58,291 nt of DNA from Candidatus Gottesmanbacteria bacterium GW2011_GWC1_43_10. Lineage in GTDB: Bacteria; Patescibacteriota; Microgenomatia; UBA10105. Positions 2 through 24,823 of the stretch are shown one piece after another. Numbering within the stretch: position 1 is the stretch's first letter; each line of letters starts with the position of its first letter. A program made the position numbers and the translations under genes. The notes under the pieces are model-generated. The model searched no databases. It saw nothing but the letters and a program-made list of their open reading frames with translations, and was not told the origin of the DNA. Location: positions 1 through 58,291 of the forward strand of contig LCEX01000012.1 of NCBI GenBank assembly GCA_000995415.1. The letters are read 5' to 3'.

Positions 2-349
2 TTTCAACCTATTCAGAAACGAGTTTTTCAATTTAGCTTGCGAATCATCAAAATGATAGTCTTCTTACCGAAAAATTCTGCCGGATTTGCTATTAGCCAG
101 CAGATCATGCGGAGTGGTACTTCAATTGGGGCAAATATTGCCGAAGCTCAAGACGCAGCTTCTAAAGCTGATTTTACTCACTGTATGAATATTGCTCTAA
201 AAGAGGCTCGGGAAACTGACTATTGGTTAAGGCTAATCACCGCAGCCAAGTTGATTCCAGAGGCTAAAATGGCTTCACTGCTTGCAGAAATAGAGGAACT
301 TGTTAAAATACTAAGATCGAGCGTTAAAAAGCTCCGAAATAAAAATTGA
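2..349 (+). CDS. four-helix-bundle protein (23S rRNA intervening-sequence protein family); 5' end runs off the window
   Basis: The frame is open from base 2 to TGA 347-349. The core GTSIGANIAEAQDAASKADFTHCMNIALKEARETDYWLRLI fits the TIGR02436-type family. The track ORF 38..349 begins at an internal TTG. Confidence 0.7.
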   Translation, partial: FQPIQKRVFQFSLRIIKMIVFLPKNSAGFAISQQIMRSGTSIGANIAEAQDAASKADFTHCMNIALKEARETDYWLRLITAAKLIPEAKMASLLAEIEELVKILRSSVKKLRNKN

Positions 350-401: not shown

Positions 402-476
402 TCCCCTGTAGCTCAACGGCAGAGCGGCTTCCTGTTAAGAAGAAGGTTGGAGGTTCGAATCCTCCCGGGGGAGCCA
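402..476 (+). tRNA. tRNA-Asn (anticodon GTT), CCA encoded
   Basis: Cloverleaf read by eye. Acceptor TCCCCTG/CGGGGGA has one G-U pair. D stem is GCTC/GAGC. Anticodon stem is CTTC/GAAG with loop CTGTTAA. T arm is GGAGG-TTCGAAT-CCTCC. Discriminator G is followed by CCA. Confidence 0.9.
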
Positions 477-538
477 AGTGGTACTTAATATACCAAAAAA
501 TATATTAATGCAAAGTCGACCTTTTTAGCGATGTAGAT

Positions 539-1417
539 ATGAAAAAACAAGAGGTAATAGATAATCTTAAAAAACTTGCTTCTCAATTGGGATCTAAGAA
601 ATACATCACTTTGAAAGATCTTCGTTCGGTTCCCAAATTGAGTCACTATATGTATTTTCATTTTAAAACGATTAAAAAGGCTTTGCACGAAGCAGGTTTG
701 CCTTCTTCTTACTTAGCATCGAGTATGGGTATTAGCGATGAAAAGCTTTTAGATTATTTAAAGGATTTACAAGCTAAATTGGGTTATCCTCCTACTGTCT
801 GGGAAATTCAACATGACAACCAACTCTATAAAAAGTATTCAGAGAGAAAAATTATCTGGTCAATTTATAAATCAAGATTCGGCGGATTGATAAAAGCTAA
901 AGAATTTGCAGGTATGAAGGATAGTAAAGCGAGAATATATAAATCACGTACGTCTGGAGGGGATTTTGAAGAAGGCGAAGAAGTACTACCAAAAAATAGA
1001 TATTGGGGAGAAGCGGCAGAACTCCATGTGCTAGCAGAATTACTGTATCATGAATTTCAAGCAGCAAATATACCAGTTGATGTAGGATTAGATATTCTTG
1101 CGGTAAAGAACAATAAGACCTTTTACTTCCAAGTAAAACATAAGGATTTAAGTGACAGCAGAGCAATAAAACTCACAAAAAGTTCATTTGAAAAAACTGG
1201 TTCAGGGAATGTTTATTATATATTTGTTTTACTATCTGATAATAAAAGAGACTTCTTAATTATCCCTTATCACATCGTAAATCAATGGATAAAACAAGGT
1301 TTTGCAAAGGAAGAAGAGAGTAATTATTTAATTTATATCGACAAAAAGGATGGTAAATATAAATTAAAAGAAGTAGAACTGGATAATTACCTTGATAACT
1401 GGAAAGATATTAGATAA
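539..1417 (+). CDS. hypothetical protein: two homing-endonuclease-associated-type repeats plus a C-terminal PD-(D/E)xK-like nuclease fold
   Basis: Two ~55-aa repeats end in ..KKALHEAGL and ..KAKEFAGM. The C-terminal GEAAELHVLAELL..VDVGLDILAV..FYFQVKH gives an E..D..QxK pattern like Hjc/restriction-endonuclease folds. Confidence 0.45.
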   Translation: MKKQEVIDNLKKLASQLGSKKYITLKDLRSVPKLSHYMYFHFKTIKKALHEAGLPSSYLASSMGISDEKLLDYLKDLQAKLGYPPTVWEIQHDNQLYKKYSERKIIWSIYKSRFGGLIKAKEFAGMKDSKARIYKSRTSGGDFEEGEEVLPKNRYWGEAAELHVLAELLYHEFQAANIPVDVGLDILAVKNNKTFYFQVKHKDLSDSRAIKLTKSSFEKTGSGNVYYIFVLLSDNKRDFLIIPYHIVNQWIKQGFAKEEESNYLIYIDKKDGKYKLKEVELDNYLDNWKDIR

Positions 1418-1621
1418 ATACAAAAAAATTCAAACAAAAGAAGGTTTAACTTTTTCTATCTCCTCTCTGAATTGAGCTAGAATTATACAATAGTTTTCAC
1501 TGTGGGAAGCCAGATGGGACTTAGTTACCAAGTTCAGCTTAAAACATAGCCTTAATTGCTTAATTTCCGCTAGTATACTGTCTGAATTAGCTCTATTACA
1601 GTTGACAATTTGAACAATCTT

Positions 1622-1630
1622 TGATAATAT
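1622..1630 (+). promoter_or_regulatory. extended -10 (TGaTAATAT) 6 nt upstream of ATG 1637; TTGACA at 1602-1607 gives a 17-nt spacer
   Basis: TTGACA-N17-TAATAT is read directly. The ATG lies 7 nt after the -10 hexamer, so the transcript would be leaderless. Confidence 0.5.
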
Positions 1631-1636
1631 ATGGTT

Positions 1637-2773
1637 ATGAAAATAAAACGGAGCCTGCTTTCTATTCTTAGAAACGAGTTGATGGAAGCAAATAAAGGAT
1701 TAGTGATTTATGGCCCCAGACAGGTTGGAAAGACTACGCTTGTTAATGATTTACTTAGTGAATTCCAATTAAAAACTTTGATTTTAAATGGAGACCAAAG
1801 AGGAGCATGGTGGGAACTACTGACCAGTAGGGAATTATCGAAACTTTCTCTGCTGGTTTCCGGTTATGAGGCTATCTTTATAGATGAGGCGCAACGTATA
1901 CCGGAAATCGGATTAAATTTAAAAATTATTTTGGATAATTTTCCGAAATTAAAAGTGATTGTTACAGGATCATCTTCTCTTGACTTAGCAAGCAAAATCA
2001 GTGAACCACTTACGGGAAGAATCTACAGCTACAGATTATTTCCTATTTCTCAAGGAGAACTGCGAGTGACGCGCACTCCTTATGAAATGGAAACGCAAGT
2101 AGAAGAGAGGTTGATTTACGGGTCATATCCGGAAATTTTTTCTTTAGACGGCGCTCTGGCTAAACATAAATATTTACAAAATTTAGTTGACACCTATCTT
2201 TACAAAGATTTGCTCGAATTCGGCGACATAAGAAACTCTTCAAAAATTCGCGACCTATTAAAATTGTTGGCTTTTCAAATTGGAAATCAAGTCTCTATAA
2301 GCGAATTGGGTAATTCTTTAGAGCTAAATAAAGCAACAGTGGATAGATACATCGATTTGTTGGAAAAATCTTTTATTATTTTCAGATTGTCAGGATTCAG
2401 CAGAAATTTACGCAAAGAAGTAACCAAAATGGACAAAATCTACTTTCATGACACCGGAGTGAGAAACGCCATTATTGGAAATTTGAATTCACTTAACAGC
2501 CGTGATGATGCGGGAAAATTGTGGGAGAATTTTTTGATTGTTGAGCGGATGAAAAAATTGCAGTATGAACAAAAAATCTTTTCTGTTTATTTTTGGCGCT
2601 TATCAAGCGGAGCGGAGATGGATTTAATAGAAGAAACAGCAGGTAAACTGCATGGTTTTGAATTCAAATATGGTAAAAAAATCGTTAAACTTCCAAACTC
2701 TTGGGCGATCGGTTATCCAGCCGCCACTGCAACATTAATCAATCAAACTAATTGGCAGGAGTTCGTGGTTTAA
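1637..2773 (+). CDS. AAA+ ATPase with DUF4143-type C-terminal domain
   Basis: Walker A is GPRQVGKTTL and Walker B is IFIDEAQ. The length and C-terminal region are typical of COG1373/DUF4143 ATPases. The start is moved to ATG 1637 because of promoter geometry. Confidence 0.85.
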   Translation: MKIKRSLLSILRNELMEANKGLVIYGPRQVGKTTLVNDLLSEFQLKTLILNGDQRGAWWELLTSRELSKLSLLVSGYEAIFIDEAQRIPEIGLNLKIILDNFPKLKVIVTGSSSLDLASKISEPLTGRIYSYRLFPISQGELRVTRTPYEMETQVEERLIYGSYPEIFSLDGALAKHKYLQNLVDTYLYKDLLEFGDIRNSSKIRDLLKLLAFQIGNQVSISELGNSLELNKATVDRYIDLLEKSFIIFRLSGFSRNLRKEVTKMDKIYFHDTGVRNAIIGNLNSLNSRDDAGKLWENFLIVERMKKLQYEQKIFSVYFWRLSSGAEMDLIEETAGKLHGFEFKYGKKIVKLPNSWAIGYPAATATLINQTNWQEFVV

Positions 2774-2826
2774 AATTAATTATTTCTTTTTGATATTTAT
2801 TGCGTTTACAATACGGAATAAAGAAC

Positions 2827-3144
2827 ATGAAAATAAAACTTGGGTTGCTTTTTGGTCTTGTCTTTGGTTTGCTGGATGTACTTTTGATGATCCCACTTAA
2901 TATGCCGGATAAAGCCGTAGCCATGACTGGAGCCTTCTTTGGCCGTTTTGCTATTGGTTTTTTGATTCCAAATACCAGTCTTCCGACTCCTTCTTGGTTT
3001 AGGGGATTGGTGGTAGGGTTACTTATCAGTTTGCCAGATGCCATCATTACTAAAGCCTACGCACCTATTTTAGGTATTGGCATGGTTGGCGGGATTTTAA
3101 TAGGTATTATTTCGAACAAATTGGAAAGGAGGTGGCGAGTATGA
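2827..3144 (+). CDS. small integral membrane protein
   Basis: The ORF has 3-4 hydrophobic helices (LGLLFGLVFGLLDVLLMI, GLVVGLLISL, GIGMVGGILIGII). Its stop overlaps the next start in ATGA. Confidence 0.55.
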   Translation: MKIKLGLLFGLVFGLLDVLLMIPLNMPDKAVAMTGAFFGRFAIGFLIPNTSLPTPSWFRGLVVGLLISLPDAIITKAYAPILGIGMVGGILIGIISNKLERRWRV

Positions 3145-3374
3145 AAAAATGTGACAGTTGTGGTATGCCGCTGGATGCAAATTCCACTTCGAAATTTGCT
3201 GATCATTACTGTATTTACTGTCAGAATCAAGAAACAGGGGATTTATCCAAATATGAACAGGTCAAAGAAGGTAGTATCGGCGCTGCTATGAAATTTATGG
3301 GTAAGACAAAACCGGAGGCGGAACAAATGGTTAACGATATGTTACCAACTCTTCCGAGGTGGAAGAAATCCTAG
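3141..3374 (+). CDS. zinc-ribbon domain protein
   Basis: AGGAGGTG lies 6 nt upstream of ATG 3141. The protein has CDSCG...CIYC cysteine pairs. Confidence 0.6.
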   Translation: MKKCDSCGMPLDANSTSKFADHYCIYCQNQETGDLSKYEQVKEGSIGAAMKFMGKTKPEAEQMVNDMLPTLPRWKKS

Positions 3375-3447
3375 AGGTAGTACTGACATAAGCCTGGGGT
3401 AGCTTAATAAAGAGAGGGATCTAACATAACTTGAATTAAGGTGCATT

Positions 3448-3807
3448 TTATTTAGAAAGAAAGAAATAGGATAGAATAAGTGAAGTAAAGATAACAATTA
3501 AAGCTAAACCACAAATAATCATAACCCGTTTCGCAGAGTCTTCACGTCTTTTGTTAAAACCCTCAAACATTAGTGCATCAAAATAGTAAAGTCTTTCTTG
3601 TGTCGATTTTATGAATGAAAGCCTTTTCCATGTAGAAAAAATACGCATATATCCTAATTTTTCTGAATTTATATAATCAACAATGTTTTTCTCGGATACT
3701 GTTTTGTCTGGTTCTGTTTTACCTAAGGAGATAAAATGAGAACCAAGCTTTAAGGCTTGTCTATGGGAATGGCGTGCAAATATTGCTACGATCACTGTTG
3801 AGCTCAT
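3448..3807 (-). CDS. hypothetical protein with C-terminal transmembrane anchor
   Basis: A 119-aa ORF with a C-terminal hydrophobic helix (MIICGLALIVIFTSLILSYFFL). No family was recognised. Confidence 0.45.
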   Translation of the reverse strand: MSSTVIVAIFARHSHRQALKLGSHFISLGKTEPDKTVSEKNIVDYINSEKLGYMRIFSTWKRLSFIKSTQERLYYFDALMFEGFNKRREDSAKRVMIICGLALIVIFTSLILSYFFLSK

Positions 3808-3935
3808 AAAAAAATTATAACATGTTCTAAAGATATCAGATTTACCTCACTGTCTATTACAATCGAAGTCTTAATATTCTATTAGCCAGCCTTGCAGTTT
3901 ATTTTCAATCTAACCAGTAGATATAATCTAAACAC

Positions 3936-4145
3936 ATGATACTTTCAATTGGAACATTATTAAGCGGGTTATTCATAAGCCTTCCTGGTTATAGGGCCAT
4001 GAAGGAAAAGAGGATGAAATTAATGCCGATAAACAGAAAAGAAGTTTTAACAGGTGAGGCGGCAGAAAGAGCAGGAAAGCAATTACTAATCGTAGGATTA
4101 ATTGTTTCTATTGTTGGATTAATATTCATATTTTCTTCTATTTAA
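3936..4145 (+). CDS. small two-helix membrane protein
   Basis: A 69-aa ORF with hydrophobic helices at both ends. Confidence 0.4.
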   Translation: MILSIGTLLSGLFISLPGYRAMKEKRMKLMPINRKEVLTGEAAERAGKQLLIVGLIVSIVGLIFIFSSI

Positions 4146-4211
4146 TTAACTTGGTAAGTCATAAAAGCATTATACTACTGCCGTAAAAGTCTGTGTGACT
4201 GGCGTAAAATC

Positions 4212-4260
4212 TAGCTGAATATCAAGCTTAGGCTTGGGGAGCCCAGATTGTCTTATTATA
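4212..4260 (+). repeat. tRNA-Asn-derived repeat copy R1
   Basis: TAGCTGAATATCAAGCTTAGGCTT aligns to the tRNA D arm and anticodon-stem start. GGGGAGCCCAGATTGTCTTATTATA aligns to the tRNA 3' end plus flank (GGGGGAGCCAAGTGGTACTTAATATA). Confidence 0.65.
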
Positions 4261-4463
4261 ATTTCGTGCCTATTTTTGAGTATTTTTAATATGGGAGTCG
4301 GTACGACCTTATGGATTTTTCGGTTCTTTACGACTATTCTTCTTCGAAGAAAAACCTCAGGTAATGTCGCTTCATAAAGGGCGGTGCCCTTTGTTCTTGA
4401 CAACCCCACTGGAATTGTTTAATCTATAGGTAGATAGTCATTATAAACGGTTACTTACGCTAT

Positions 4464-5246
4464 ATGAAACAAACAATCCTGTCTACCCAACAAAGTGCTC
4501 TCCTTGAGGATTTGATCGTCAAGTATGGTCAAATAGTTACTTCTGAGCAGATCTATGCCCAGGGAAAGGATGTATGGGATCAACAAGTGGCTAAAAACGT
4601 TGTAACTAGGCTCACCCGCAATGGGTGGCTAATTCGGGTAAAGCGCGGCTTATATGCCATCTCCGACTTGAGTAATCGTGGGTTTTTGTCTCTCTCGCCC
4701 TCTGTAGTAGCCAATCTTCTGGTTAAGGATTCTTATGTCTCTTTTGAGTCGGCTCTGGCCTACCACGGTATGTTTGACCAGCTTACCAACAAGACCATTT
4801 CTATTTCTCGAGTTCAATATAAGACGGTTCAACTGCAATCAGTCGAGTACAGCTTTGTAAAAGTTCTGGAGAAGTGGTTTTTTGGTTGGGAAAAGGTAAT
4901 TATTGATAATAAGACCGTTCGTGTAGCCACTGCCGAAAAGGCCTTAATTGACATGATTCAGTTCCATAAAAGTAAATATACCGTTGATTTAGTGGTGGAA
5001 AAGCTTTCTTTGTATAAAGACTCACTTGACCTACAAAAAATGACAGAGTACCTGGGCAAGATGTCTTTGACTACCATTAAGACATTTGGTTTTCTGTTTG
5101 ACCTCTTAGGGATTGATTCTGGTGATCTTTATAATCAAGTTAAATTAAAGGGTACTCACTTGATGTTGTCTCACGATGCTAAGTTTAACGCCAAATGGCG
5201 ACTCTATTACGATGCCTATTTTGATAAATATCAGTCAGTTAAATAA
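4464..5246 (+). CDS. abiEi: type IV toxin-antitoxin system AbiEi-family antitoxin / transcriptional regulator
   Basis: An N-terminal wHTH contains ..LTRNGWLIRVKRGLYAI. The ~260-aa size fits. It sits 5 nt upstream of an AbiEii gene. Confidence 0.8.
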   Translation: MKQTILSTQQSALLEDLIVKYGQIVTSEQIYAQGKDVWDQQVAKNVVTRLTRNGWLIRVKRGLYAISDLSNRGFLSLSPSVVANLLVKDSYVSFESALAYHGMFDQLTNKTISISRVQYKTVQLQSVEYSFVKVLEKWFFGWEKVIIDNKTVRVATAEKALIDMIQFHKSKYTVDLVVEKLSLYKDSLDLQKMTEYLGKMSLTTIKTFGFLFDLLGIDSGDLYNQVKLKGTHLMLSHDAKFNAKWRLYYDAYFDKYQSVK

Positions 5247-5251
5247 TCCCT

Positions 5252-6010
5252 ATGCTTACCCGACAACAACTCGAAATCATTAATCGCAAAAGTTTGCGCT
5301 ATCCCTTGCATATTGCCGAAAAGGATTATTTCCTAGCTCTGGTAATGCAGATTATTGCGGCTTCTTTGACTGGTAAAGCCCTTATTTTCAAGGGCGGCAC
5401 CGCTTTGCATCACTGTTATCTGGACCAGTGCCGTTTTTCTGAAGACTTGGATTTTTCCTCAAACAGGACACCGTTGCCCCTTGAAGAAGTGCGGAAAATC
5501 TTTGACGGCATCGATTATTTGAGCATTAAAAAAGACTATCTTTCGCAGGCCACCATTAAAATCGAGAAACTCCAATATACTGGGCCACTGTTTCAGCCAA
5601 ACTCACTCAAAGTAGAAATTGACTTCTTGCAAAGTGTCCTGCTACCCCCTCAAATCATGGTCTACCATAACGTTTGGGGCGTAGATATAACGGTTGCCGT
5701 CATGGATATTAAGGAAATATGCGCGGAGAAAATCCGAGCTATGAGTGATCGGGCTCGTTACCGCGATTTCTATGATATCTACTTACTTTTGGAAAAGTAC
5801 AAGTTGGATCTGGATGAGATCGTCTCGTACGTCAGGCAGAAGGAGATTCGCCGACCCATCACTAAAGCCAGCATTCAAACCAACTGGAAGGTAATTGCGA
5901 CCGAAAAAGAGCAGGAAATGGGCCAGATTTATTACTCCAAGCAGATAGAGGATAGCCAGATTGAGACACTAATCCAAAGTCTGCCTTTTGACAGCATTAC
6001 AGCTGCGTAA
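5252..6010 (+). CDS. abiEii: nucleotidyltransferase AbiEii/AbiGii-family toxin (DUF1814)
   Basis: The signature FKGGTALHHCYLDQCRFSEDLDF is present. Confidence 0.9.
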   Translation: MLTRQQLEIINRKSLRYPLHIAEKDYFLALVMQIIAASLTGKALIFKGGTALHHCYLDQCRFSEDLDFSSNRTPLPLEEVRKIFDGIDYLSIKKDYLSQATIKIEKLQYTGPLFQPNSLKVEIDFLQSVLLPPQIMVYHNVWGVDITVAVMDIKEICAEKIRAMSDRARYRDFYDIYLLLEKYKLDLDEIVSYVRQKEIRRPITKASIQTNWKVIATEKEQEMGQIYYSKQIEDSQIETLIQSLPFDSITAA

Positions 6011-6016
6011 ATACTT

Positions 6017-6223
6017 ATGACAGTGATAACTGATAAACAACTGGTTAAATTCAAGGTGCTTTATAAGGCGCACTTTGGTGAAGAGTTAAGCCAGCAAACA
6101 TTGAGGCGATGGGACCGGGAAGGACATTTAAAGGCAATAAGGATTGGTACAAGACGAGACATTGGGGATAGGCGGTATCGCAAAGAAGATATTGAAAATT
6201 ATTTAAAGAAAATAGATTTATGA
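6017..6223 (+). CDS. small MerR/excisionase-type helix-turn-helix protein
   Basis: ..SQQTLRRWDREGHLKAIRIG..RRYRKEDIENYL resembles a MerR-superfamily HTH. The start is 6 nt after the abiEii stop. Confidence 0.6.
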   Translation: MTVITDKQLVKFKVLYKAHFGEELSQQTLRRWDREGHLKAIRIGTRRDIGDRRYRKEDIENYLKKIDL

Positions 6224-6295
6224 ATAATATTCAGTCCGACATTAAAAACACAATTCTGAGAAAGAAAGAAACGAAAATAAAACATTCGAATAATT

Positions 6296-7546
6296 ATGAA
6301 AAAAATTAAAGTAACAATCCAGGACGAAAACACACTAGAACTATTAGAAGATGCCCAAAAAGGTGACATAATCGATCTAAAATCGATACACGAGACAGAT
6401 ATAGATAAAACTACAATTGATATCCTAGTCAAATCAATTAAAACTGATGAGTTTATTGCACAGATAGAGGCAGCAAAGCGCAATATCGAAAAAGAGAAGA
6501 GTCTTGAGGCTCAACTCAAAGAAAAAGACATTATTAATAGAGCGAAAGAAGCGCTTGCAAAGAAAGATCAGGAGATTACCAATCTAAACACTAAAGTCGA
6601 AAACATTGCTAAACAAGTTGAATCGGATGCAAAAATTAAGGCCTTAGAAGAGAAAAAGTCTCTGGAAGATGGTTATCAGCAAAAATTAACTGAAAAAGAA
6701 GCTGAAATTCAAGAGATTAAACATCAAAAGGAACTAAGTGAGCAAAAATACCAGGATCAACTTAAAGCGAGCGAAACTGCTTTAGTCTCGCTAAAAGAAA
6801 TGCGATCTAGAATGAGTACTAAGATGATTGGTGAATCATTAGAGGTTCACTGCAAAAACGAGTTTAATAGGCTTCGCCCGTTTGCCTTTCCCAAGGCTCA
6901 ATTCGGTAAAGATAATCAACTTTCAACTTCGGGGTCCAAAGGAGACTATATCTATCGAGAACATGACGATGACGGTAATGAAATTTTAATCATTATGTTC
7001 GAGATGAAAAATGAGGATGATGAAACATCTACTAAACATAAAAATAAAGACTTTTTCAAGGAATTAGATAAAGATCGACGAGAAAAAGATTGCGAATATG
7101 CAGTACTTGTCAGCTTATTGGAAAAAGAGAACGAATATTATGACGATATTGTTACAGTGCCTGATTATCCATGCATGTTTGCCATAAGACCTCAACATTT
7201 TATTACTATAATTGCGTTTTTACGTCAGGGTAATTTGAAATCTCAAGAATTGCGACTAACTATTCAAAATCTTAAAAATCAAAATATCGATGTAACCAAT
7301 TTTGAAGCCAATATGAATGAATTTAAGGATGCTTTTGCTAGAAATTATAACTTGGCTGCTGATCAATTTACTAAAGCAATTGAAGAAATCGATAAGACTA
7401 TTGATCATCTCAACAAGGTTAAAGAAAATTTGCTCAAATCAGATAACAACTTGAGACTAGCTAACAACAAAGCATCAGAACTTACAGTAAAAAGGTTGAC
7501 AGCTAACAGCCCAAGTGTTGCAAGGGCTTTTGAGGAAAAAGTCTAA
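6296..7546 (+). CDS. DUF2130-family protein (coiled coil plus putative PD-(D/E)xK nuclease-like C-half)
   Basis: The N-half is a K/E-rich coiled coil. The C-half GDYIYRE..ILIIMFEMKNE gives a D...ExK pattern. Size and layout fit DUF2130/COG4487. Confidence 0.65.
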   Translation: MKKIKVTIQDENTLELLEDAQKGDIIDLKSIHETDIDKTTIDILVKSIKTDEFIAQIEAAKRNIEKEKSLEAQLKEKDIINRAKEALAKKDQEITNLNTKVENIAKQVESDAKIKALEEKKSLEDGYQQKLTEKEAEIQEIKHQKELSEQKYQDQLKASETALVSLKEMRSRMSTKMIGESLEVHCKNEFNRLRPFAFPKAQFGKDNQLSTSGSKGDYIYREHDDDGNEILIIMFEMKNEDDETSTKHKNKDFFKELDKDRREKDCEYAVLVSLLEKENEYYDDIVTVPDYPCMFAIRPQHFITIIAFLRQGNLKSQELRLTIQNLKNQNIDVTNFEANMNEFKDAFARNYNLAADQFTKAIEEIDKTIDHLNKVKENLLKSDNNLRLANNKASELTVKRLTANSPSVARAFEEKV

Positions 7547-7548
7547 AT

Positions 7549-8817: not shown

Positions 8818-8969
8818 ATTACATCGCGCGCATTGTCGCCGGAACATCATCCCGTAGTCCTTCTTTCAAAAGCTTTTTTATTTCCAACCACCTCTGCCGC
8901 AGTTCCCCGATATAACCTACATTCTCAAAAGTCTTTAGAATCGCATCAAAACTTTGGTGCATACTGAGT

Positions 8970-8989
8970 CTAGGCTCGGTGAGCCAAGT
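8970..8989 (+). repeat. tRNA-Asn-derived repeat copy R6 (short, diverged)
   Basis: CTAGGCTCGGTGAGCCAAGT: GAGCCAAGT is identical to tRNA positions 471-479. CTAGGCTCGGTGAGCC parallels copy R1 (CTTAGGCTTGGGGAGCC). Confidence 0.5.
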
Positions 8990-9034
8990 TTTTTTTAGAG
9001 CTTCACAACTGTCTAAATAGTTAACTCCTCCATC

Positions 9035-9043
9035 TGTTATAAT
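9035..9043 (+). promoter_or_regulatory. extended -10 TGtTATAAT, 6 nt upstream of ATG 9050
   Basis: The TGnTATAAT consensus is read directly. The ATG begins 7 nt after the hexamer. Confidence 0.55.
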
Positions 9044-9049
9044 AATTTC

Positions 9050-9534
9050 ATGAGTAAAAACAACCTGTCGCTTACGTTATTTGCGGATTTATCGGAGCAG
9101 GTAAGACGACTTTTGCCAGAAAACTAGAAAAGGAAACAGGAGCAATACGCATAACTAAAGACGAATGGGTAATAAAAATTTTCGGAAATAAAATAACTTC
9201 AGATAAGAATTTTGAAAAATATGACAAAAATATAACTAAACTGGCAACGGATATTGTGTTTAAAATCCTGAAAGCTGGAAAAGATGTGATAATAGATGAA
9301 GGTTTTTGGGCTAAATCACAAAGGGACGATATTAAGAAGAAAGTATCAGAAGTAGGAGCAAAGCCAATTCTTTATTATGTCGAATGTCCTGTTGAGAAAA
9401 TGAGAGAAAGGGTTGTTACCCGAAGTAAGCTTCCACCTGAAGACTCTTTTGAAATAAGTGGGGAAATGTTCGATAGTTATTTAAAATATTGGCAGCCACC
9501 AGAGGAAGACGAAGAATTTATACTGGCAAAATAG
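9050..9534 (+). pseudogene. P-loop kinase/ATPase (AAA_33-like) with a 1-nt frameshift in an A5 run just after the start codon
   Basis: ATG 9050 (frame 2) reads MSKNNLSL.. and stops at 9125-9127. Frame 1 is open from 9058 and reads ..PVAYVICGFIGAGKTTFARKLEKE.. (Walker A) through to TAG 9532-9534. One extra A in AAAAA 9056-9060 would join them. Confidence 0.6.
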
Positions 9535-9659
9535 GTTCTGGTATTTTCTACTAGGCGGAGAGTTGTAAAAGACTGTGCGTTTGATTTAAAAGGAACTCTG
9601 GTTGTTGAATGAGCTCTTCCCAATTCGCGGTTCGGAAATCGTTCCACGGATCGAGCCAG

Positions 9660-9687
9660 TTGACACATAACATACCTAAATTATATT
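9660..9687 (+). promoter_or_regulatory. candidate sigma70-type promoter TTGACA-N16-TATATT
   Basis: TTGACA is at 9660-9665 and TATATT at 9682-9687, in an otherwise gene-free stretch. Confidence 0.4.
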
Positions 9688-9743
9688 AATCCAAGTTACG
9701 AAATGAGCTATTCGTTTTATGGTGTTATATTAACTCACCCTAA

Positions 9744-9795
9744 CCCTCTCTTTGAAAAAAGAGAGGGAATCCCTCCCCTTTTAGGAAAGGGGAGG
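9744..9795 (+). other. two adjacent perfect 10-bp hairpins
   Basis: Hairpin 1 is CCCTCTCTTT-gaaa-AAAGAGAGGG (9744-9767). Hairpin 2 is CCTCCCCTTT-tagg-AAAGGGGAGG (9772-9795). AAAGGAGGTG follows directly. Confidence 0.8.
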
Positions 9796-9812
9796 AAAGG
9801 AGGTGAATATTT

Positions 9813-9884
9813 ATGAATGGTGAAGTTGTTTGTACTACTTGCGGTCATGTACAACAGGATCTAATTAAGTGTAATGTAATTTAG
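9813..9884 (+). CDS. 23-aa Cys-containing mini-ORF (MNGEVVCTTCGHVQQDLIKCNVI)
   Basis: A strong SD (AAGGAGGTG) lies 7 nt upstream. The same SD context GGAGGTGAAnAT..ATG is used by other small genes here (11938, 36097). No homology was recognised. Confidence 0.25.
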   Translation: MNGEVVCTTCGHVQQDLIKCNVI

Positions 9885-10043
9885 TAAGCAACTAGATTTA
9901 TTTCAATTTCTCTCATGTGTTTATTCCAGATCGGATTCTGAAAAGTTTTGATAACCCATCGATATCACCCAGGACAAATAAACCACGTACTAATTTCTAT
10001 TAGCGATAGGAGCATGGAATCAGATATGTTGGTGGGAATGTTT

Positions 10044-10526
10044 TTAGGTTGGCTTTGGTTTGTCTTTTAGCCTTTTTTGTTGCAGTGCTTGATCTATTAA
10101 AAAAACTTGATTACTTCTAAGGAGAGGCATTTTGTCTTGTGGAAAAAACCCATACGCAGACACTTCTTGGCTTGGTGCAAATTCACCACCAATAAATACG
10201 CCGGTATAACATATGTCCAGTCGCGCTCCCTCCCTGTCTGTCCGCGTTTTGAGTGAGTCGTCAACGCTCACTACCAGATTCGATTCTTCTTTAATTTCAC
10301 GTTCAAGGGTTTCTTTGGGATGCTCTCCGGCTTTCATATATCCACCGGGAAGTGCCCATGGGTGTTTTCGGTACGTATGTTTAAATAGTAGCACTTCATT
10401 TTTTTCATTAAAAAGAACTCCGGTAACTCCTACGAGAAATTGGCTTTGAAAAAATCGCATGAAGAAAAGTTGTATACCCTTCGGAAGATTAAGCAGTTTC
10501 CAGACTTTTGCAAGTAGTAGTTTCAC
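10044..10526 (-). CDS. NUDIX hydrolase
   Basis: The Nudix box GGYMKAGEHPKETLEREIKEESNL is present. Confidence 0.9.
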   Translation of the reverse strand: MKLLLAKVWKLLNLPKGIQLFFMRFFQSQFLVGVTGVLFNEKNEVLLFKHTYRKHPWALPGGYMKAGEHPKETLEREIKEESNLVVSVDDSLKTRTDREGARLDICYTGVFIGGEFAPSQEVSAYGFFPQDKMPLLRSNQVFLIDQALQQKRLKDKPKPT

Positions 10527-10870
10527 AGAGCGTTCTGGTCGTCAGGCTCGTTTTCGTCAGAATTATTTTTGAGTCTCTCATTTTCCAGCTCCAGCTTATG
10601 AATTTGTTTGGTCAAATCAACGATCTCACTTTTAGCTTGTTTAATTTTATTATCTTTCCCGTGCATGGCGAAGGCGGTAAAAATTGAATTGACTAGGTAA
10701 ATAAGATAGGCCAAACCTAGTCCCGTGAGCAGAGAACCGATGATGATATAAAAAAGCGGAATATCGGGTATGACATAAGTTCCAAGGCGCAACGTTACCA
10801 ACATCAAATTGTTTTGGGCCAGATATACAAAGACTGCGCCAACAACTAATAAAAAGATAAGTTTAAGCAT
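10523..10870 (-). CDS. LapA/DUF1049-like membrane protein with C-terminal coiled coil
   Basis: Two TM helices precede KIKQAKSEIVDLTKQIHKLELENERLK. ATG 10870 is preferred over the TTG at 10906 because TATACT lies 7 nt upstream of it on the minus strand. Confidence 0.5.
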   Translation of the reverse strand: MLKLIFLLVVGAVFVYLAQNNLMLVTLRLGTYVIPDIPLFYIIIGSLLTGLGLAYLIYLVNSIFTAFAMHGKDNKIKQAKSEIVDLTKQIHKLELENERLKNNSDENEPDDQNAL

Positions 10871-10935
10871 CTCAAATAGTATACAAGTATAGTTGCTACT
10901 ATACAAGTACTACAATTAGTTGTAGTATATGAAGT

Positions 10936-11121
10936 ATGACAACTGATGATAAACAACGGATAACCCTATTTATTAACCCATCTATTGTTAAGCAGGCGAG
11001 AGCTCAAGCTGTTGTTGAGGATTTGAGTTTGACTAGTCTTGTAGAAAACGCCTTGATTAACTATTTGCCTAAAGAAACGGTCATTAAGAAAGCTGACATA
11101 AAAGTGGATATTGGTCCTTGA
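10936..11121 (+). CDS. ribbon-helix-helix (CopG-like) protein
   Basis: A beta-strand (RITLFINPSIV) is followed by helices (KQARAQAVVEDLSLTSLVENALINYL). Confidence 0.5.
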   Translation: MTTDDKQRITLFINPSIVKQARAQAVVEDLSLTSLVENALINYLPKETVIKKADIKVDIGP

Positions 11122-11193
11122 AATCTAATGAGCAAAGATGGGTACGAAAAAAGTTTATATTAATCGTAAAAAATATAAGGGGGTGAAAAAAAT

Positions 11194-11607
11194 ATGGCAG
11201 AAATATCAAAAGAAACAGTAACCACCCAGGGTAACAATGTTAACCCAGTAGTGAATACCACAACCAAAAACACCTCGGTTAAAAGTACCGCAACCAGTTC
11301 TCAGACGGTTGAATATTTAATCTATTTCCTATTTGGTGTGCTTGAAATACTCTTGGCTTTTCGCCTGGTTCTTAAATTGACAGGAGCGAGTATCGCAAGT
11401 GCCTTTGTGGGTTTAATTTACGGTTTAACCGGAATCTTTATTCTACCTTTTGAAGGAATATTCCGTAGGGGATATGCCCAAGGCGTAGAAACGAGGTCAA
11501 TTCTTGAGCCATCAACGCTCGTTGCAATTGTTGTGTACGCCGTTTTGGCTTGGGGAATTGTTAAATTACTAAGAATACTCTCTGGTGAACAACAGCAAAC
11601 GGAATAG
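11194..11607 (+). CDS. YggT-like membrane protein
   Basis: AGGGGGTG SD upstream. EILLAFRLVLKLTGA...LPFEGIF...EPSTLVAIVVYAVLAWGIVKLL resembles the YggT repeat. Confidence 0.45.
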   Translation: MAEISKETVTTQGNNVNPVVNTTTKNTSVKSTATSSQTVEYLIYFLFGVLEILLAFRLVLKLTGASIASAFVGLIYGLTGIFILPFEGIFRRGYAQGVETRSILEPSTLVAIVVYAVLAWGIVKLLRILSGEQQQTE

Positions 11608-11657
11608 TTTGTTTGACACGTTTATACGAGGGTTTATTGAAAGAAGGTGAATATATA

Positions 11658-11909
11658 ATGGGTATTATACTTTGGATTATTTTTGGAGCAATTGCGGGTT
11701 GGATCGCATCAGTGGTTATGAAAACTGATTCCAGTCAAGGCACCATGACAGATATCATTATGGGTATTATTGGTGCTATTGTGGGCGGTTTTCTTATGGG
11801 ACTAGTTGGTCAATCCGGTGTTACAGGATTTAACCTTTATAGTCTTATTGTTGCTGTAATTGGCGCAGTTGTTGTTATTTATGTTGGTCGCATGTTGCGA
11901 AATAGATAA
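11658..11909 (+). CDS. GlsB/YeaQ/YmgE-family (transglycosylase-associated) stress membrane protein
   Basis: GIILWIIFGAIAGWIAS and DIIMGIIGAIVGGFL glycine-zipper helices are present. GAAGGTGA SD lies upstream of ATG 11658. Confidence 0.8.
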   Translation: MGIILWIIFGAIAGWIASVVMKTDSSQGTMTDIIMGIIGAIVGGFLMGLVGQSGVTGFNLYSLIVAVIGAVVVIYVGRMLRNR

Positions 11910-11937
11910 AACTATAACAATGGGGGAGGTGAATATT

Positions 11938-12081
11938 ATGAATATTTCTACGACGAGCTTAACGCCGTTGGCGTCACTCGCATTCGGTGTATTGATTTTG
12001 ATTTTCCCGAAATTTCTTAATTATTTCGTCGCTGCATATCTGATCATTGTCGGAATTGTAGGACTTGGATTAATCCGATAA
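11938..12081 (+). CDS. DUF3096-family small membrane protein
   Basis: GGGAGGTG SD upstream. The sequence LASLAFGVLILIFPKFLNYFVAAYLIIVGIVGLGLI fits the family. Confidence 0.65.
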   Translation: MNISTTSLTPLASLAFGVLILIFPKFLNYFVAAYLIIVGIVGLGLIR

Positions 12082-12283
12082 CTTACGTAATAAGTTCGAA
12101 CATCCTCTACCTTTAGGAGCACATCTTTGGATTAGGCCATTGTAATAATATATTCTTCGTATCCACATCTGGAAGGGAGTTGTTCTCTTAACATAATGAA
12201 ATACTCTTTCTCTTTGTATCAGCATTTAGGTCTTCTAATTCTCAAAGCAAAATACCCTCAAAATAAAGTTGTATAATCTCCTT

Positions 12284-12658
12284 ATGAAACCGAGCGAGCA
12301 AATTGATCAATTAATTACAGGACTTAACGGCTGGCGCGGCAAAATGCTTGCCAATCTTCGTAAAATCATTCATGATTGTGACCCCGAGATAATCGAGGAA
12401 TGGAAATGGATGGGCAGTCCGTGTTGGTCTCATGATGGACTAATCTGTGTTGCCAACGCTCACAAGGATAAGGTAAAACTGACCTTTTCTCAGGGCGCAA
12501 GCCTTTCGGATCCGGACAAGCTCTTTAACGCCGGTCGCCAAGGCAATAGATGGCGAGCGATTGATCTCTATGAGGGCGATAAAATAAAGGAGAATGCATT
12601 AAAAATCCTTATCCGCGCTGCCATTGATCACAACAAAGTTAAGAAATCAAGAAAGTAA
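12284..12658 (+). CDS. DUF1801 (YdhG-like) domain protein
   Basis: ..DPEIIEEWKWMGSPCWSHDGLICV..KVKLTF.. is present. TATAAT 12272-12277 lies 6 nt upstream of ATG 12284. Confidence 0.7.
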   Translation: MKPSEQIDQLITGLNGWRGKMLANLRKIIHDCDPEIIEEWKWMGSPCWSHDGLICVANAHKDKVKLTFSQGASLSDPDKLFNAGRQGNRWRAIDLYEGDKIKENALKILIRAAIDHNKVKKSRK

Positions 12659-12789
12659 TTTCTTCCCACCTTTGTTTCAGTTCACCAATGTCGTGTAAGT
12701 CCTGAAATGCTTGAATAATCCTTCGATAAAAACTCAGGACAAGTACGGCCAAAATTAGCTTGATTTACGACTTATTCTGAGTCGATGGA

Positions 12790-12815
12790 GGGGGAGCCAG
12801 TTGGCGCTTAATATA
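12790..12815 (+). repeat. tRNA-Asn 3'-end repeat copy R3 (best copy)
   Basis: GGGGGAGCCAGTTGGCGCTTAATATA compared with tRNA plus flank GGGGGAGCCAAGTGGTACTTAATATA gives 22/26 identical. This includes an exact 10-mer and an exact 9-mer. Confidence 0.8.
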
Positions 12816-12827
12816 TCTGGATTTAAT

Positions 12828-13169
12828 ATGAGAGAAACTGTCAAAATCGTCGTTTTTGTTCCGGAAACTCATGCTGACGTCGTAAGAGAAGCTATGGGAA
12901 AAGCGGGCGCTGGTTTAATCGGAGATTATAAATACTGCAGCTTTTCTATTAAAGGCATTTCACGTTTTATTCCACTTGATACTGCGCATCCTACAATCGG
13001 AAAGATAGGTAAAATGGAAGAAGTCAAAGAGGAAAGAATTGAAACTGTTTGTTATAAAGATGATCTAGATAAAATTATCAGGGCAATAAAAAAAGTACAC
13101 CCATATGAAGAAGTAGCGATTGATGTTTATCCTTTGGTCTTAAATCCACACGAAACAACATATAAATAA
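12828..13169 (+). CDS. COG3323-type protein (YqfO/NIF3 C-terminal-like alpha/beta domain)
   Basis: VKIVVFVPETHADVVREAMGKAGAG..IGDYKYCSF..GKMEEVKEERIE..VHPYEEVAIDVYPL is present. Confidence 0.6.
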   Translation: MRETVKIVVFVPETHADVVREAMGKAGAGLIGDYKYCSFSIKGISRFIPLDTAHPTIGKIGKMEEVKEERIETVCYKDDLDKIIRAIKKVHPYEEVAIDVYPLVLNPHETTYK

Positions 13170-13222
13170 GTTCAAAACTCGTCCCTAATTACCGGTGAAT
13201 ATCAGCAGCGTAAATATCCCCA

Positions 13223-14188
13223 TTACCCGTTCGCCAGGCCATCCAAGCTGCGATATTTCCGAATAACGGGACTCATGTTTCCATTCTGATGCGGACCTTG
13301 TTCTTGGATCTCAAAAACTTCGTGTGTTTTAAGGTCAACTCCTTCAATTCCTGCTACGTGTGGGACAGTATTTTTACCCCAGACGACATAGCTTTTGCTA
13401 ATTGATGGCCAAGACATGTTGTATTCAGAAGAGGAGTGGAGTAATGTTTCTGTACCTCTGCGTAGATTTTTCATGTATACGTCAGATCTGCCTTCAATAT
13501 CGCCATATTGAATCCATACCACAGTGTTTTCATAAATATCTGGTGCTTCTTGAAACCCATCACCTGTGGCTACATCGAATTGCCTGTTCCTACGCAGATC
13601 GTAGCCGTATATATTACTTCCGCCAGGTGCAGCATACCCCCACACAACTATATTTCCCGATATTTTTGCTGGCCCGCAAGCTGTTTCAGTAATCAATGTA
13701 TCTCTCCTTCGTTTCAGATCATATGCATGTAATTTGCCACACGCACCACCTTCGATATAGACAACAGTATCCTCATCATAGTCAGTCGCGGTATTTGATC
13801 CAACTTCGTCAGTTATAGCTATATCTTTTTTCCGTTTCATGTCGTATGCATGCACGTTGTATCCTCGAGCTTCCGTATAAGTATTGTATACAAGGTACCG
13901 CCCATCATAGGCTGTGGGTGCAAAGAAATCTGCGGGCAGTTGATCGCCAACTTTCGCTAGTAATGATTCTTGAGTGGTTTTGAAGTCATAGCCATGTATC
14001 TCTCCAAATCCATCTGACCAATAAACAGTATTTTTGTAAATCATAGGCCAATCCTCACGGTTGCCGCTTGATGTGAGTTGAAGAAGATCTACTGTGGCTG
14101 CGAAAGCAATATCCAATTTGACAGTTAAAAATAGAAAGGAAAGTAAGAGCAGTAAAGATATAAATCTTAATCCATTTTTCATCTTCAT
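13223..14188 (-). CDS. secreted beta-propeller repeat protein
   Basis: It has a signal peptide (LRFISLLLLLSFLFLTV..AFA). About six ~45-aa repeats each contain a ..[TN][VI]V[WY].. strand (NTVYWSD, RYLVYNT, DTVVYIE, NIVVWGY, NTVVWIQ, SYVVWGK). Confidence 0.6.
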   Translation of the reverse strand: MKMKNGLRFISLLLLLSFLFLTVKLDIAFAATVDLLQLTSSGNREDWPMIYKNTVYWSDGFGEIHGYDFKTTQESLLAKVGDQLPADFFAPTAYDGRYLVYNTYTEARGYNVHAYDMKRKKDIAITDEVGSNTATDYDEDTVVYIEGGACGKLHAYDLKRRRDTLITETACGPAKISGNIVVWGYAAPGGSNIYGYDLRRNRQFDVATGDGFQEAPDIYENTVVWIQYGDIEGRSDVYMKNLRRGTETLLHSSSEYNMSWPSISKSYVVWGKNTVPHVAGIEGVDLKTHEVFEIQEQGPHQNGNMSPVIRKYRSLDGLANG

Positions 14189-14246
14189 ATCAGATTAAAT
14201 ATAGTATTACTCCTTTGGACAAAATATAGCAATATGACGTAAAATC

Positions 14247-14289
14247 TAGCTGTATACCGAGCTTGGGCTGGGGGAGCAGAGTTAATTTA
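14247..14289 (+). repeat. tRNA-Asn-derived repeat copy R2
   Basis: CGTAAAATCTAGCTG (14238-14252) is identical to 4203-4217. It continues TATACCGAGCTTGGGCTGGGGGAGCAGAGTTAATTTA, ~80% identical to copy R1. Confidence 0.65.
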
Positions 14290-14335
14290 GAGCTCAATAA
14301 GGTTTTTTATCGATTTATAGAAAGGCGGAAAACCC

Positions 14336-14860
14336 ATGACTGTCAATAAATATACGAGACAATTGGAAGACCTAGCGTTGAGAATTGCTAAGGCCGCAAA
14401 AGAGAGTAAAAAGGACTATTTTATTGGTGGAGGACTAGCTATTGATTTCTTTTATGGACAGATCACCAGAAATCATCACGACATAGACTTTCACCCGATA
14501 TTGGAAGATACCGTTTGGTGGATCGAGTGGTTTAAAAGTCGGGGTTATAAAGTTACCAATAGATTAGATCCAAAATTTCCCGAAACTTGGCGGGTTTATA
14601 ATTTTGAAGGAGAAGCCATAATAGACATGTGGCCATTGCAACAGGAAAATGGGGTATTACTCATTAATTGTGAGGGAAAATACGTTGATGCAGGAAGATA
14701 TTGGAAAGAAACTAAGTTAGTAGATTACAAAAAAGTGGATATCAGGATCGAAAACCCACAACGAGTATTGGAACAAAAAACTCGCCATGCAAGTCAAAGT
14801 CAAAAGTATCGACGTGTAGATTTGCATGATTTCAAACTTTTAGGGAAAGAGCCAAAATAA
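14336..14860 (+). CDS. nucleotidyltransferase-fold protein (ANT(2'')/LinA-like family)
   Basis: GGGLAIDFFYGQITRNHHDIDF matches the GG..D..h...R.H.DiD motif of that family. Confidence 0.55.
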   Translation: MTVNKYTRQLEDLALRIAKAAKESKKDYFIGGGLAIDFFYGQITRNHHDIDFHPILEDTVWWIEWFKSRGYKVTNRLDPKFPETWRVYNFEGEAIIDMWPLQQENGVLLINCEGKYVDAGRYWKETKLVDYKKVDIRIENPQRVLEQKTRHASQSQKYRRVDLHDFKLLGKEPK

Positions 14861-14885
14861 AAAGTCCAAACTTGCTCAATCGCCC

Positions 14886-14911
14886 GGAGCCAATTGGCGG
14901 CACTTAATGTA
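14886..14911 (+). repeat. tRNA-Asn 3'-end repeat copy R4
   Basis: GGAGCCAATTGGCGGCACTTAATGTA shares GAGCCA, TTGGCG and CTTAAT.TA with copy R3 and with the tRNA flank. Confidence 0.6.
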
Positions 14912-14918
14912 CTAAATT

Positions 14919-14927
14919 TGGTATACT
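14919..14927 (+). promoter_or_regulatory. extended -10 TGgTATACT, 6 nt upstream of ATG 14934
   Basis: Read directly from the sequence. Confidence 0.5.
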
Positions 14928-14933
14928 AAAAGT

Positions 14934-15194
14934 ATGAATTTTAGGAAATTATTTTACAAAATTTCTATTGGAGAAATAGTAGAGGATTATGGCGTTTTTG
15001 CAGCTGATAATTTCTACGGACTACAAGAATTAAGACTGTTGAAGTGTAGAAGCAAAAGCGAGGATTTTTTTGTATTGGAGGGATCCACAAAAATCAGATT
15101 TTTATTTGGATTTGATATCAGATATTTTAAAATAAGCAAAGAAGGTCTTTCAAACTTAAACAGTTTGTTAAATACAAAAATTTTCAATAAATAA
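14934..15194 (+). CDS. hypothetical protein
   Basis: An 86-aa ORF with leaderless-type promoter geometry. No family was recognised. Confidence 0.35.
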   Translation: MNFRKLFYKISIGEIVEDYGVFAADNFYGLQELRLLKCRSKSEDFFVLEGSTKIRFLFGFDIRYFKISKEGLSNLNSLLNTKIFNK

Positions 15195-15360
15195 AGCTTG
15201 AAATTTTGCTTTCTCAATTTCTTCCCGAGTTTGTTGGACAAGCCCCGCTTCCCACTTCGCAGACGCTTCGAGGGACAAGTCGGAGTGGCACCTAGTACAA
15301 ACTAATTGTGTGGTTATATTAGAGTTTTGCTCTTGAGCGATATGATTCCACAGAGCTTTT

Positions 15361-15618: not shown

Positions 15619-15671
15619 CTCCCTTCATTTTCACATCTGTCCTATATTCATGACTTAAGTTAGTTTAACTT

Positions 15672-16317: not shown

Positions 16318-16394
16318 ATATGTAAATATCATATATCAACTCGTCGTTTATTACAAAGATTGATTTCCTTTTCCAAATTTGACACACTTGGGTT

Positions 16395-24703: not shown

Positions 24704-24823
24704 TATACAGCCTTTTGATCTCCAACCACCCCTGTCGTAATTCTCCTATATACACCACGTTGGAAAACCAATTTTCGAAATATGCTTGACACCTGGCGGG
24801 GTATATATTACACTGTAATACAT

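Follow-up and report, generated by a model that had tools for sequence, protein, structure and literature searches.

Direct repeats behind a tRNA-Asn gene of a Gottesmanbacteria contig probably derive from mobile elements of a large serine recombinase family

The first part of contig LCEX01000012.1 from Candidatus Gottesmanbacteria bacterium GW2011_GWC1_43_10 (58,291 nucleotides; this whole stretch is called the window here) contains short repeats in a single orientation, which begin at the 3′ end of a tRNA-Asn gene. We consider it likely that these repeats are attachment (att) sites and remains of gene ends from mobile elements of one family, which use a large serine recombinase (LSR) and have inserted repeatedly at the end of tRNA-Asn in this and many other bacteria of the candidate phyla radiation (CPR). 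The first approximately 15.5 kb after the tRNA gene, together with an outlier at 24.7 kb, are most probably a genomic island that arose by serial LSR integration and decay. This reading is based on the homology of the repeat units to the 3′ ends of LSR genes, on split and unsplit forms of these genes, on reconstructed att sites, on the direct orientation of the units and on differences between the arrays of relatives. A preliminary description of the window had listed six repeat strings and offered two explanations for them, serial site-specific integration beside tRNA-Asn with decayed att remnants or a tRNA-derived junction element carrying a promoter. The first is right in essence, with three details changed: the enzyme is an LSR and not a classical tyrosine integrase, the repeated block is mostly the 3′ end of the recombinase gene with its att site and not a tRNA fragment, and the integrase is missing due to decay.

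The repeats share the block GGAGCCA-NN-TGGCACTTAATATACC, which on the minus strand encodes the peptide ..LGILSANWLP.. near the 3′ end of an LSR gene. Opposite-strand open reading frames (ORFs) of approximately 520–580 amino acids run through the block in several loci. The three that were scanned (L031, L034 and L048) contain Resolvase, Recombinase and Zn_ribbon_recom domains; therefore, the ORF is an LSR. Searches with the protein identified family members at 11 loci, and the gene is intact in other CPR genomes. It is present in two forms. The truncated form (L074, L077, L078, L079, L081, L082 and L083) runs antisense into the 3′ end of a tRNA or tRNA-like sequence and stops there, lacking the last approximately 45 codons, termed ext; the adjoining tRNA was called as tRNA-Asn in L074, L077, L079 and L081. 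The full-length form (L073, L075 and L076) has approximately 45 further codons (..NITxxLSHIIKAFEDFRLVQQIREEIEKV..*). At three of the truncated loci (L077, L082 and L083) the missing ext ORF was found on the same strand at a distance of 9–11 kb, beyond a block of cargo genes, and joining the two pieces restores the frame. The recombinase gene therefore contains the attachment site and is split by integration. Between the split pieces, L077 carries a type III-like restriction-modification system and L082 a LexA-like repressor and a methylase; the two complete elements that were examined showed no replication module.

The att sites were reconstructed in silico by comparing the attL and attR junctions of L077, L082 and L083. 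The attB of L082 (..GTCGCGGAGC|TACTGAAAAAGTCACC..) consists of the tRNA end and a terminator, as does that of L083. The attP of L082 (GGTTATATTAACGTTACGATCCTCGAGC|CCATTAGTCGTTAATATACC) is a quasi-palindrome of approximately 48 bp, and at the junctions of the complete elements attP and attB are identical in GAGC only. An identity limited to a few base pairs is typical of attP and attB of serine integrases. Judged in silico as an LSR element, the system thus has the domain set (L031, L034 and L048) and a short quasi-palindromic attP with minimal identity to attB, of which the window holds remnants only. The tRNA-Asn genes of L066, L069 and L070, which have no adjoining element arm, have neither an encoded CCA nor the block; because of this, we attribute both the CCA and the block to the element. 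The B′ side of L077 is an old P′-like relic and therefore an occupied site appears to be re-usable, giving ext|core|P′ junctions.

According to the mechanism that we propose, attP would be a quasi-palindrome of approximately 48 bp with the arms GGTATAWTAAGT and ACTTAATATACC, located inside the recombinase ORF approximately 45 codons before its stop, and attB would be formed by the last bases of tRNA-Asn. Strand exchange would take place within the 4 nt identity GAGC; we infer the exact crossover dinucleotide, as well as the order of the integration events. At one end, integration would generate the junction tRNA|P′-LSR body, with a truncated recombinase that ends in the tRNA antisense and with an encoded CCA provided to the tRNA by the element; at the other end, the ext-coding piece would be joined to B′. 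Excision would restore the full-length recombinase gene. A later element entering the occupied site, provided that the LSR accepts an old P′ arm as B′ partner as L077 suggests, would produce ext|core|P′ junctions that resemble attP. In the window, most units would then have decayed and every recombinase body would have been deleted, with defence-type and miscellaneous cargo left in between.

The block is widespread. The pattern GGAGCCANNTGGNNCTTAATATA was searched for exact matches in a collection with one genome per species, which yielded 50 matches, mostly in records titled as CPR/Patescibacteria lineages, the rest under other titles. The lineages with the block include Daviesbacteria, Woesebacteria, Curtissbacteria, Levybacteria, Roizmanbacteria, Gottesmanbacteria and Saccharibacteria. 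The positions left free in the pattern are nearly invariant (C in 39 of 50, A in 48 of 50 and CC in 39–42 of 50 matches). Of the 50 matches, 15 lie directly at the 3′ end of a tRNA-Asn(GTT), and another three have the same orientation as a tRNA-Asn(GTT) located 2–5 kb upstream of them; intact tRNAs of other types were not involved. Some matches abut a tRNA-like 3′ half that is not called by ARAGORN, and for most of the remaining ones no tRNA is located within the locus examined. Viral contigs contained neither a block match nor a relative of the LSR, and there is no sign that the elements are phages.

Three further observations concern the sequences next to such tRNA ends. In L078, the one locus with an uncalled tRNA-like 3′ half that was scanned, a group I intron (12234–12515; Rfam 89.5 bits) is located just upstream of the tRNA-like 3′ end that is abutted by the LSR gene, and ARAGORN reports no tRNA there. 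The sequence GAGATAGTCC.. is found upstream of the T arm in L078, with similar sequences in L015, L028, L052, L082, L083, L086 and L090. In the metagenome contigs L084, L085, L087 and L089, the same tRNA 3′ end, GGAGCCAGATGG, is directly followed by a different conserved sequence of approximately 60 nt (GACGCAGAGGCAACAAAGCGTCCTTTTGTCCCGTAACATCGCTC..), perhaps an arm that belongs to another family of elements.

In the window, a gene of the 23S-rRNA-IVP family is followed by tRNA-Asn(GTT) at positions 402–476 on the plus strand (ARAGORN; Rfam 63.1 bits), which is the attB target and whose last bases and encoded CCA adjoin an element-derived arm. Apart from tRNA, the Rfam search of the window revealed no RNA family. 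All six strings of the preliminary description were found at their positions when the sequence was checked. The 26-mer at 467–492 matches the copy at 12790–12815 at 22 of 26 positions without gaps, whereas the best match in 300 first-order Markov shuffles of the window reached 20 of 26. Six matches to the 26-mer with at least 17 identical positions are located on the plus strand (1.2 expected) and none on the minus strand. The weaker copies at 4236, 8978, 14270 and 14886 are unconvincing alone; we accept them because the free pattern positions are nearly invariant in the 50 matches from other genomes and because their minus-strand translations match recombinase C-termini. That the similarities are due to chance or low complexity, as the individual weakness of the copies at 8978, 14270 and 1503 would allow, is therefore a negligible explanation: the copy at 12790 exceeds all shuffles, the 50 exact matches elsewhere have conserved free positions, and all units are located on one strand and adjoin ext homology.

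Searches of the minus-strand translation with LSR C-termini and ext peptides (tblastn), combined with repeat finding and local alignment, identified at least 11 units in the window (U0 to U10), all with one orientation and with their LSR C-terminus or ext matches on the minus strand (E = 4e-13 to 7e-3). Five of these (U1, U4, U5, U9 and U10) had been overlooked before. U0 (467–494) is an attL-type junction of tRNA end and P′ arm (GA|GCCAAGTGGTACTTAATATACC) that reads GILSTTWLPREDSNLQPSS on the minus strand (E = 6e-9). Its recombinase body is gone, and the same layout is present with an intact LSR in L077, L079 and L081. U1 (1433–1528) contains a decayed core with P′ (GGGAAGCCAGATGGGACTTAGTTACC, 1503–1528) and an ext relic (ILAQFREEIEKVKPSFV). 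The two lines of evidence for it, 17 of 26 ungapped positions and a match to the LSR C-terminus of L065 (E = 0.007), are each marginal alone and are found together in the expected order. U2 (4182–4409, the copy at 4212/4236) consists of the 3′-terminal approximately 65 codons of an unsplit LSR gene and reads through the core into a truncated ext (KRHYLRFFF..VVKNRKIHKVVPTPILKILKNRHEIIIRQSGLPKPKLDIQLDF..). It matches LSR C-termini in two linked segments (E = 4e-4) and the tRNA 26-mer at 18 of 26 positions. U3 (8819–8998, the copy at 8978) still has an intact ext frame (TWLTEPRLSMHQSFDAILKTFENVGYIGELRQRWLEIKKLLKEGLRDDVPATMRAM*; E = 4e-13) and forms an attR-like junction, in which the ext is followed on the plus strand by the core GGTGAGCC and a terminator-like T-run with no P′ arm; a terminator-like hairpin is located at 8973–8985.

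U4 (9617–9694; repeat family D10) has a core with a diverged P′ (GAGCCAGTTGACACATAACATACC) and a shortened ext-like left arm; it aligns locally over 62 nt to 452–513 (score 36), and approximately 20 nt past the arm resemble the sequence after U0. The stretch GGTTCGGAAATCGTTCC at 9629 was first taken as a decayed T arm, and it is the same stretch that can be read as the shortened ext-like minus-strand frame NWLDPWNDFRTANWEE (a weak match, E = 0.075). Left arms resembling a T arm (pseudo-T-arms) recur in other genomes, and we now tentatively regard the stretch at 9629 as a P arm of the element that resembles the B arm. U5 (9908–9964) is an ext relic (VIKTFQNPIWNKHMRE) that matches the L054-type ext (E = 4e-4), with no recognizable core. 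U6 (12645–12815, the copy at 12790) is attP-like: an ext relic with a frameshift (ILSANWLPLHRLRI.. / ..IIQAFQDLHDIGELKQRWEEI) is joined to a core and to a P′ arm that is well preserved (E = 8e-7). U7 (14235–14290, the copy at 14247/14270) repeats the left arm and the core of U2, with 86% identity over 43 nt between 14235–14277 and 4200–4242 (repeat family D18), and its right flank is U3-like (TTTAGAGCT). At the DNA level, the homology of the U2/U7 left arm to the left arms of L016, L017 and L037 is not significant (p about 0.1), and the link is based on the match of the protein frame. U8 (14886–14916, the copy at 14886) has a core and a P′ arm with a 3 nt insertion (GGAGCCAATTGGCGGCACTTAATGTAC; gapped alignment score 27) and shows the best inverted-repeat symmetry among the window units (16 of 28). 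U9 (15204–15345) is an LSR C-terminal/ext relic (AQEQNSNITTQLVCT..LVQQTREEIEKAK) with a match to the LSR C-terminus of L065 (E = 2.5e-4). U10 (24708–24800) is an ext relic (FSNVVYIGELRQGWLEIKRL; E = 3e-6) that belongs to repeat family D12 together with 8871–8923; it lies beyond the range covered before. Inverted-repeat scoring of single units was weak and gave ambiguous centres, and a clear palindrome was obtained from the reconstructed attP only. Any recombination competence that the window units still have would be putative.

The second explanation offered before, a junction element derived from tRNA-Asn that consists of the D arm and the acceptor end without the part from the anticodon to the T arm, carries a promoter and assembles the array, is not supported. 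It could draw on GGGGGAGCCA, which is common to the block and the tRNA end, on plus-strand genes that begin 14–204 nt after six of the units, and on U4, which holds the best promoter-like match of the region, strongly resembling a sigma-70 site (TTGACA-16-TATATT, 9660–9687). Yet the D-arm alignments of the copies at 4212 and 14247 to tRNA positions 402–466 score 11 and 10, below the shuffle means of 12.2 and 12.0 (p = 0.75 and 0.93). At most approximately 10 nt of each copy correspond to tRNA, the remainder being the end of the recombinase gene; the strings are not truncated tRNA-Asn copies. GGGAGCCA corresponds, in reverse complement, to the W-L-P codons that are conserved in the recombinase/ext frame. 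The same applies to GGGGGAGCCA in U6, which is not tRNA DNA; its likeness to the tRNA end stems from the binding of the P and B arms by one and the same enzyme and not from the copying of a tRNA. Promoter-like sites are not enriched (39 found, 46.7 expected), the TAATAT box has no conserved −35 partner, and what follows the block in complete elements is the recombinase gene, in converging orientation, and not a downstream gene. Altogether, this makes a tRNA-derived promoter element very improbable. With regard to annotated genes, the earlier statement that all copies are intergenic is valid; the copies nevertheless represent what remains of coding sequence on the minus strand, and the one at 8819–8998 is still an open frame.

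The segments between the units (495–15203) were analysed with Pfam and PADLOC. They encode an HNH_repeat protein and an ATPase (PDC-S01 / AAA_14-DUF4143; PDC-S01 is a candidate defence ATPase), AbiEi/AbiEii, an HTH_17 protein, DUF2130, a Trypsin_2 protease and an AAA_33 kinase. In addition, NUDIX, LapA-like, YGGT-like, Transgly_assoc and DUF1801 proteins, proteins of 122 and 321 amino acids and a nucleotidyltransferase are encoded. The GC content of the array is 0.34–0.41, compared with 0.39–0.48 over the core genes from approximately 30 kb on. Differences in presence and content between conserved flanks, as expected for an island, were seen in the distant relatives L069, L070 and L071, which have the stretch from rpoD to tRNA-Asn in common with the window. 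L069, in which the DEAD helicase and BipA are 45–60% identical to those of the window at the amino acid level, also shares the pair of a 61-amino-acid protein and the YGGT protein as well as DEAD helicase-BipA. Its distance from tRNA to helicase is approximately 7 kb, compared with 30 kb in the window, and its cargo is different and split by the same kinds of units. The 61 related loci contain 60 ext units; 16 loci have more than one, and in all 16 the units are on one strand. The picture of a cassette array fits the architecture well here and in these 16 other loci.

A SHOCT-DsrE-PadR module is abutted by U9 in the window (15354–16339) and is present with 74–80% DNA identity in three genomes (the window, L068 and L070) at different array positions; in L068 it is located between the protease and an ext unit. 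According to these positions, the module behaves as a movable block. At the other side of the tRNA, a near-identical strain (L005 1–9863, GCA_000998605.1 LCDL01000020; also L088) diverges wholly 24 nt upstream of tRNA-Asn (position approximately 378 of the window). The divergent DNA encodes two serine recombinases that are 30–35% identical to the LSR family, an N6/N4 methylase, a DEAD/ResIII helicase and an OLD-like ATPase; it is either an element inserted 5′ of the tRNA or an assembly join.

Several results weigh against serial LSR integration and decay. No recombinase domain was found with Pfam in window ORFs of at least 120 amino acids, nor in the first 16 kb, which bears out the earlier remark that no segment contains an integrase; there are C-terminal relics only, and since such relics of recombinase coding sequence are found at 4182–4409 and 15204–15345 we ascribe the lack of an integrase to decay. 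Presence/absence differences located exactly at the repeats, which had been suggested as a check, were not found among near-identical strains, where only small deletions inside genes were seen. These are independent deletions of 24–118 bp between strains of 99.9% identity, located in the AbiEi antitoxin gene (4464–5246) and in the AAA_33 kinase region (9207–9413), none of them at a unit. A metagenome scan for the tRNA of the window joined to another P′ arm revealed no recombinant or excised junction. Given that near-identical strains do not differ at the units and that the metagenome scan revealed no alternative junction, mobility at this locus is historical and not demonstrated. The YGGT block is conserved in L069, and units that lie past it imply insertion away from the tRNA-proximal site. 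Canonical LSRs recombine attP with attB only, and tandem accretion needs recombination with an occupied site, which we infer from one case (L077). Finally, two patterns of conservation are not what random deletion would leave: the conservation of the block ends sharply approximately 20 nt past the core/CCA, and ext is conserved at the protein level in units without a recombinase.

The last two points speak for a live integron-like cassette system, in which the units are functional sites and the LSR acts in trans or is supplied by a neighbouring element. A cassette would then consist of a P′ arm, one or two uniformly oriented genes, the ext ORF and the core, and would be excised and re-inserted; the ext peptide would complete the recombinase or serve as a small directionality factor. 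In the subfamily of the window, this peptide (..FENVSYIGELRQRWLEIKKLLKGG..) has 26 close relatives, and 152 clusters of relatives were obtained at 50% identity. Nearly all are ORFs of 35–130 amino acids. Differences among four recombinase-less copies are located mainly at third codon positions (5/2/13 up to 12/7/25 for the three positions), which points to purifying selection on the ext protein. Such a system would also explain why at least 50 block matches and 152 ext clusters stand against 11 LSR loci, why seven of the 26 ext ORFs (P0005, P0006, P0008, P0013, P0017, P0018 and P0026) begin with Met at the junction codon or one residue before it, and why L017 has five units in 8 kb with all cargo ORFs of at least 100 amino acids opposite to ext. 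In the window, however, only a single ext frame out of 11 has stayed intact, decay has affected several P′ arms, and neither a resident recombinase nor a common promoter was found. The arrays mix several ext subfamilies, many of them truncated to 27–62 codons, and therefore debris of several related elements is favoured over a cassette system with a single integrase. The few longer proteins with ext are C-terminal LSR fragments that end in it, and its conservation may stem from active recombinase genes. We thus regard a live cassette system as unlikely.

AlphaFold predicts ext as a single long helix (pLDDT 74). Either its conservation goes back to the time when it was part of active recombinase genes, or the helix serves a separate function once detached. 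A more far-reaching proposal, which we put forward tentatively and hold to be rather doubtful, is a widespread CPR system in which the LSR has the att site in its own frame, so that integration and excision would dismantle and rebuild the C-terminal helix. Detached helix ORFs of approximately 50 amino acids would then be kept by purifying selection in hundreds of units that lack a recombinase, where they would serve as exchangeable C-termini or as directionality factors acting in trans. If true, the tRNA-Asn arrays would be an active integron-like platform for cassette exchange in organisms that are thought to be poor in mobile elements.

Integration by an LSR with decay of older copies, which we prefer, has parallels in several known systems. 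SCCmec and related SCC islands of staphylococci use the large serine recombinases CcrAB and CcrC and integrate at the 3′ end of rlmH/orfX. As in SCC, integration takes place at the 3′ end of a conserved gene that stays functional, and composite arrays contain recombinase-less modules with accessory and defence-type cargo between directly repeated att sequences. In contrast to SCC, the target is tRNA-Asn and not rlmH, there is one recombinase and not a CcrA/CcrB pair, the hosts are CPR bacteria, and attP is located inside the recombinase ORF, which is truncated on integration; the comparison with Ccr is one of shared Pfam domains only. In archaea, fuselloviruses of the SSV1 type have attP inside the integrase gene, which is split when they integrate into a tRNA gene and restored on excision. 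An attP in the integrase ORF, partition of the gene on integration, in-frame distal ext pieces and both split and unsplit forms are found here as well, whereas the SSV integrase is a tyrosine recombinase of archaeal hosts and the enzyme here is a serine recombinase from which only the last approximately 45 codons are detached. Integrons have a resident tyrosine integrase (intI), attI and Pc, and recombine their attC sites in the form of folded single strands. A feature in common is the array of short gene cassettes with uniform orientation, each ending in a recombination site, but no tyrosine recombinase, attI or Pc was found in the window.

Compared with tRNA islands of the Islander type, the displaced tRNA 3′ fragment is lacking as a direct repeat (GAGC to approximately 10 nt are shared and the tRNA is intact), and the integrase gene is found in relatives and not in the window; variable content between conserved flanks is present (L069, L070 and L071). 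In the tycheposons of Prochlorococcus, later elements at the same tRNA push older ones inward and leave fragmented integrases and att remnants scattered, the repeated marks are partial tRNAs, and a minority of tycheposons use large serine recombinases (bioRxiv 10.1101/2020.12.28.424599). The serial integration at one tRNA with decaying older elements further inward is similar here, although at most approximately 10 nt of the repeats are tRNA-like, the rest being the end of the recombinase gene, and the lineage is different. The system thus works in a similar way to SCC, SSV-type and tycheposon-like islands and is a member of none of them, since each has another enzyme class, another target or another kind of repeat. 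Literature searches, the coverage of which was incomplete, yielded no account of it, which is weak evidence of novelty.

Several other features of the window were observed. In the AAA_33/zeta-toxin-like kinase gene (9050–9534), the ATG at 9050 is out of frame with the P-loop and the rest of the gene (9079–9534), which looks like a frameshift in a T-run; a public annotation has a product of 151 amino acids. An ORF of 1860 amino acids on the minus strand (17247–22829) contains three DUF5667 stretches and an 18 nt tandem repeat near its 3′ end (17266–17355), and its local GC content of approximately 0.50 is above that of the rest of the window. Right after an RNaseH_like gene (39199–39702), the heptanucleotide AACTCAG is repeated perfectly in tandem about nine times (39704–39773). 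Two adjacent paralogous genes for class A penicillin-binding proteins with Transgly and Transpeptidase domains (40116–41933 and 42065–44350) are 73–83% identical in patches at the DNA level (families D1, D4 and D9). Just upstream of the tRNA, two genes for 23S_rRNA_IVP four-helix-bundle proteins flank a YkuD gene (window 38–349; L001 8255–8617 and 9455–9811). One of them also matches bAvd, a family of accessory proteins of diversity-generating retroelements, and no reverse transcriptase was seen nearby.

To our knowledge, the mobile elements and the routes of gene flow of CPR/Patescibacteria are poorly known. The locus in the window is mostly a graveyard, and the direct biological impact here is modest. 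For the group as a whole, the analysis points to a specific and widespread pair of recombinase and att site and to a tRNA-Asn hotspot where defence and accessory genes gather. The block of 27 nt and the ext ORF are practical markers of island boundaries for the annotation of CPR genomes, and the defined attP/attB pair is a candidate tool for genome engineering. A serine integrase gene that is split by its own integration would couple the structure of the enzyme to its integration state and would thus provide a built-in control of directionality.

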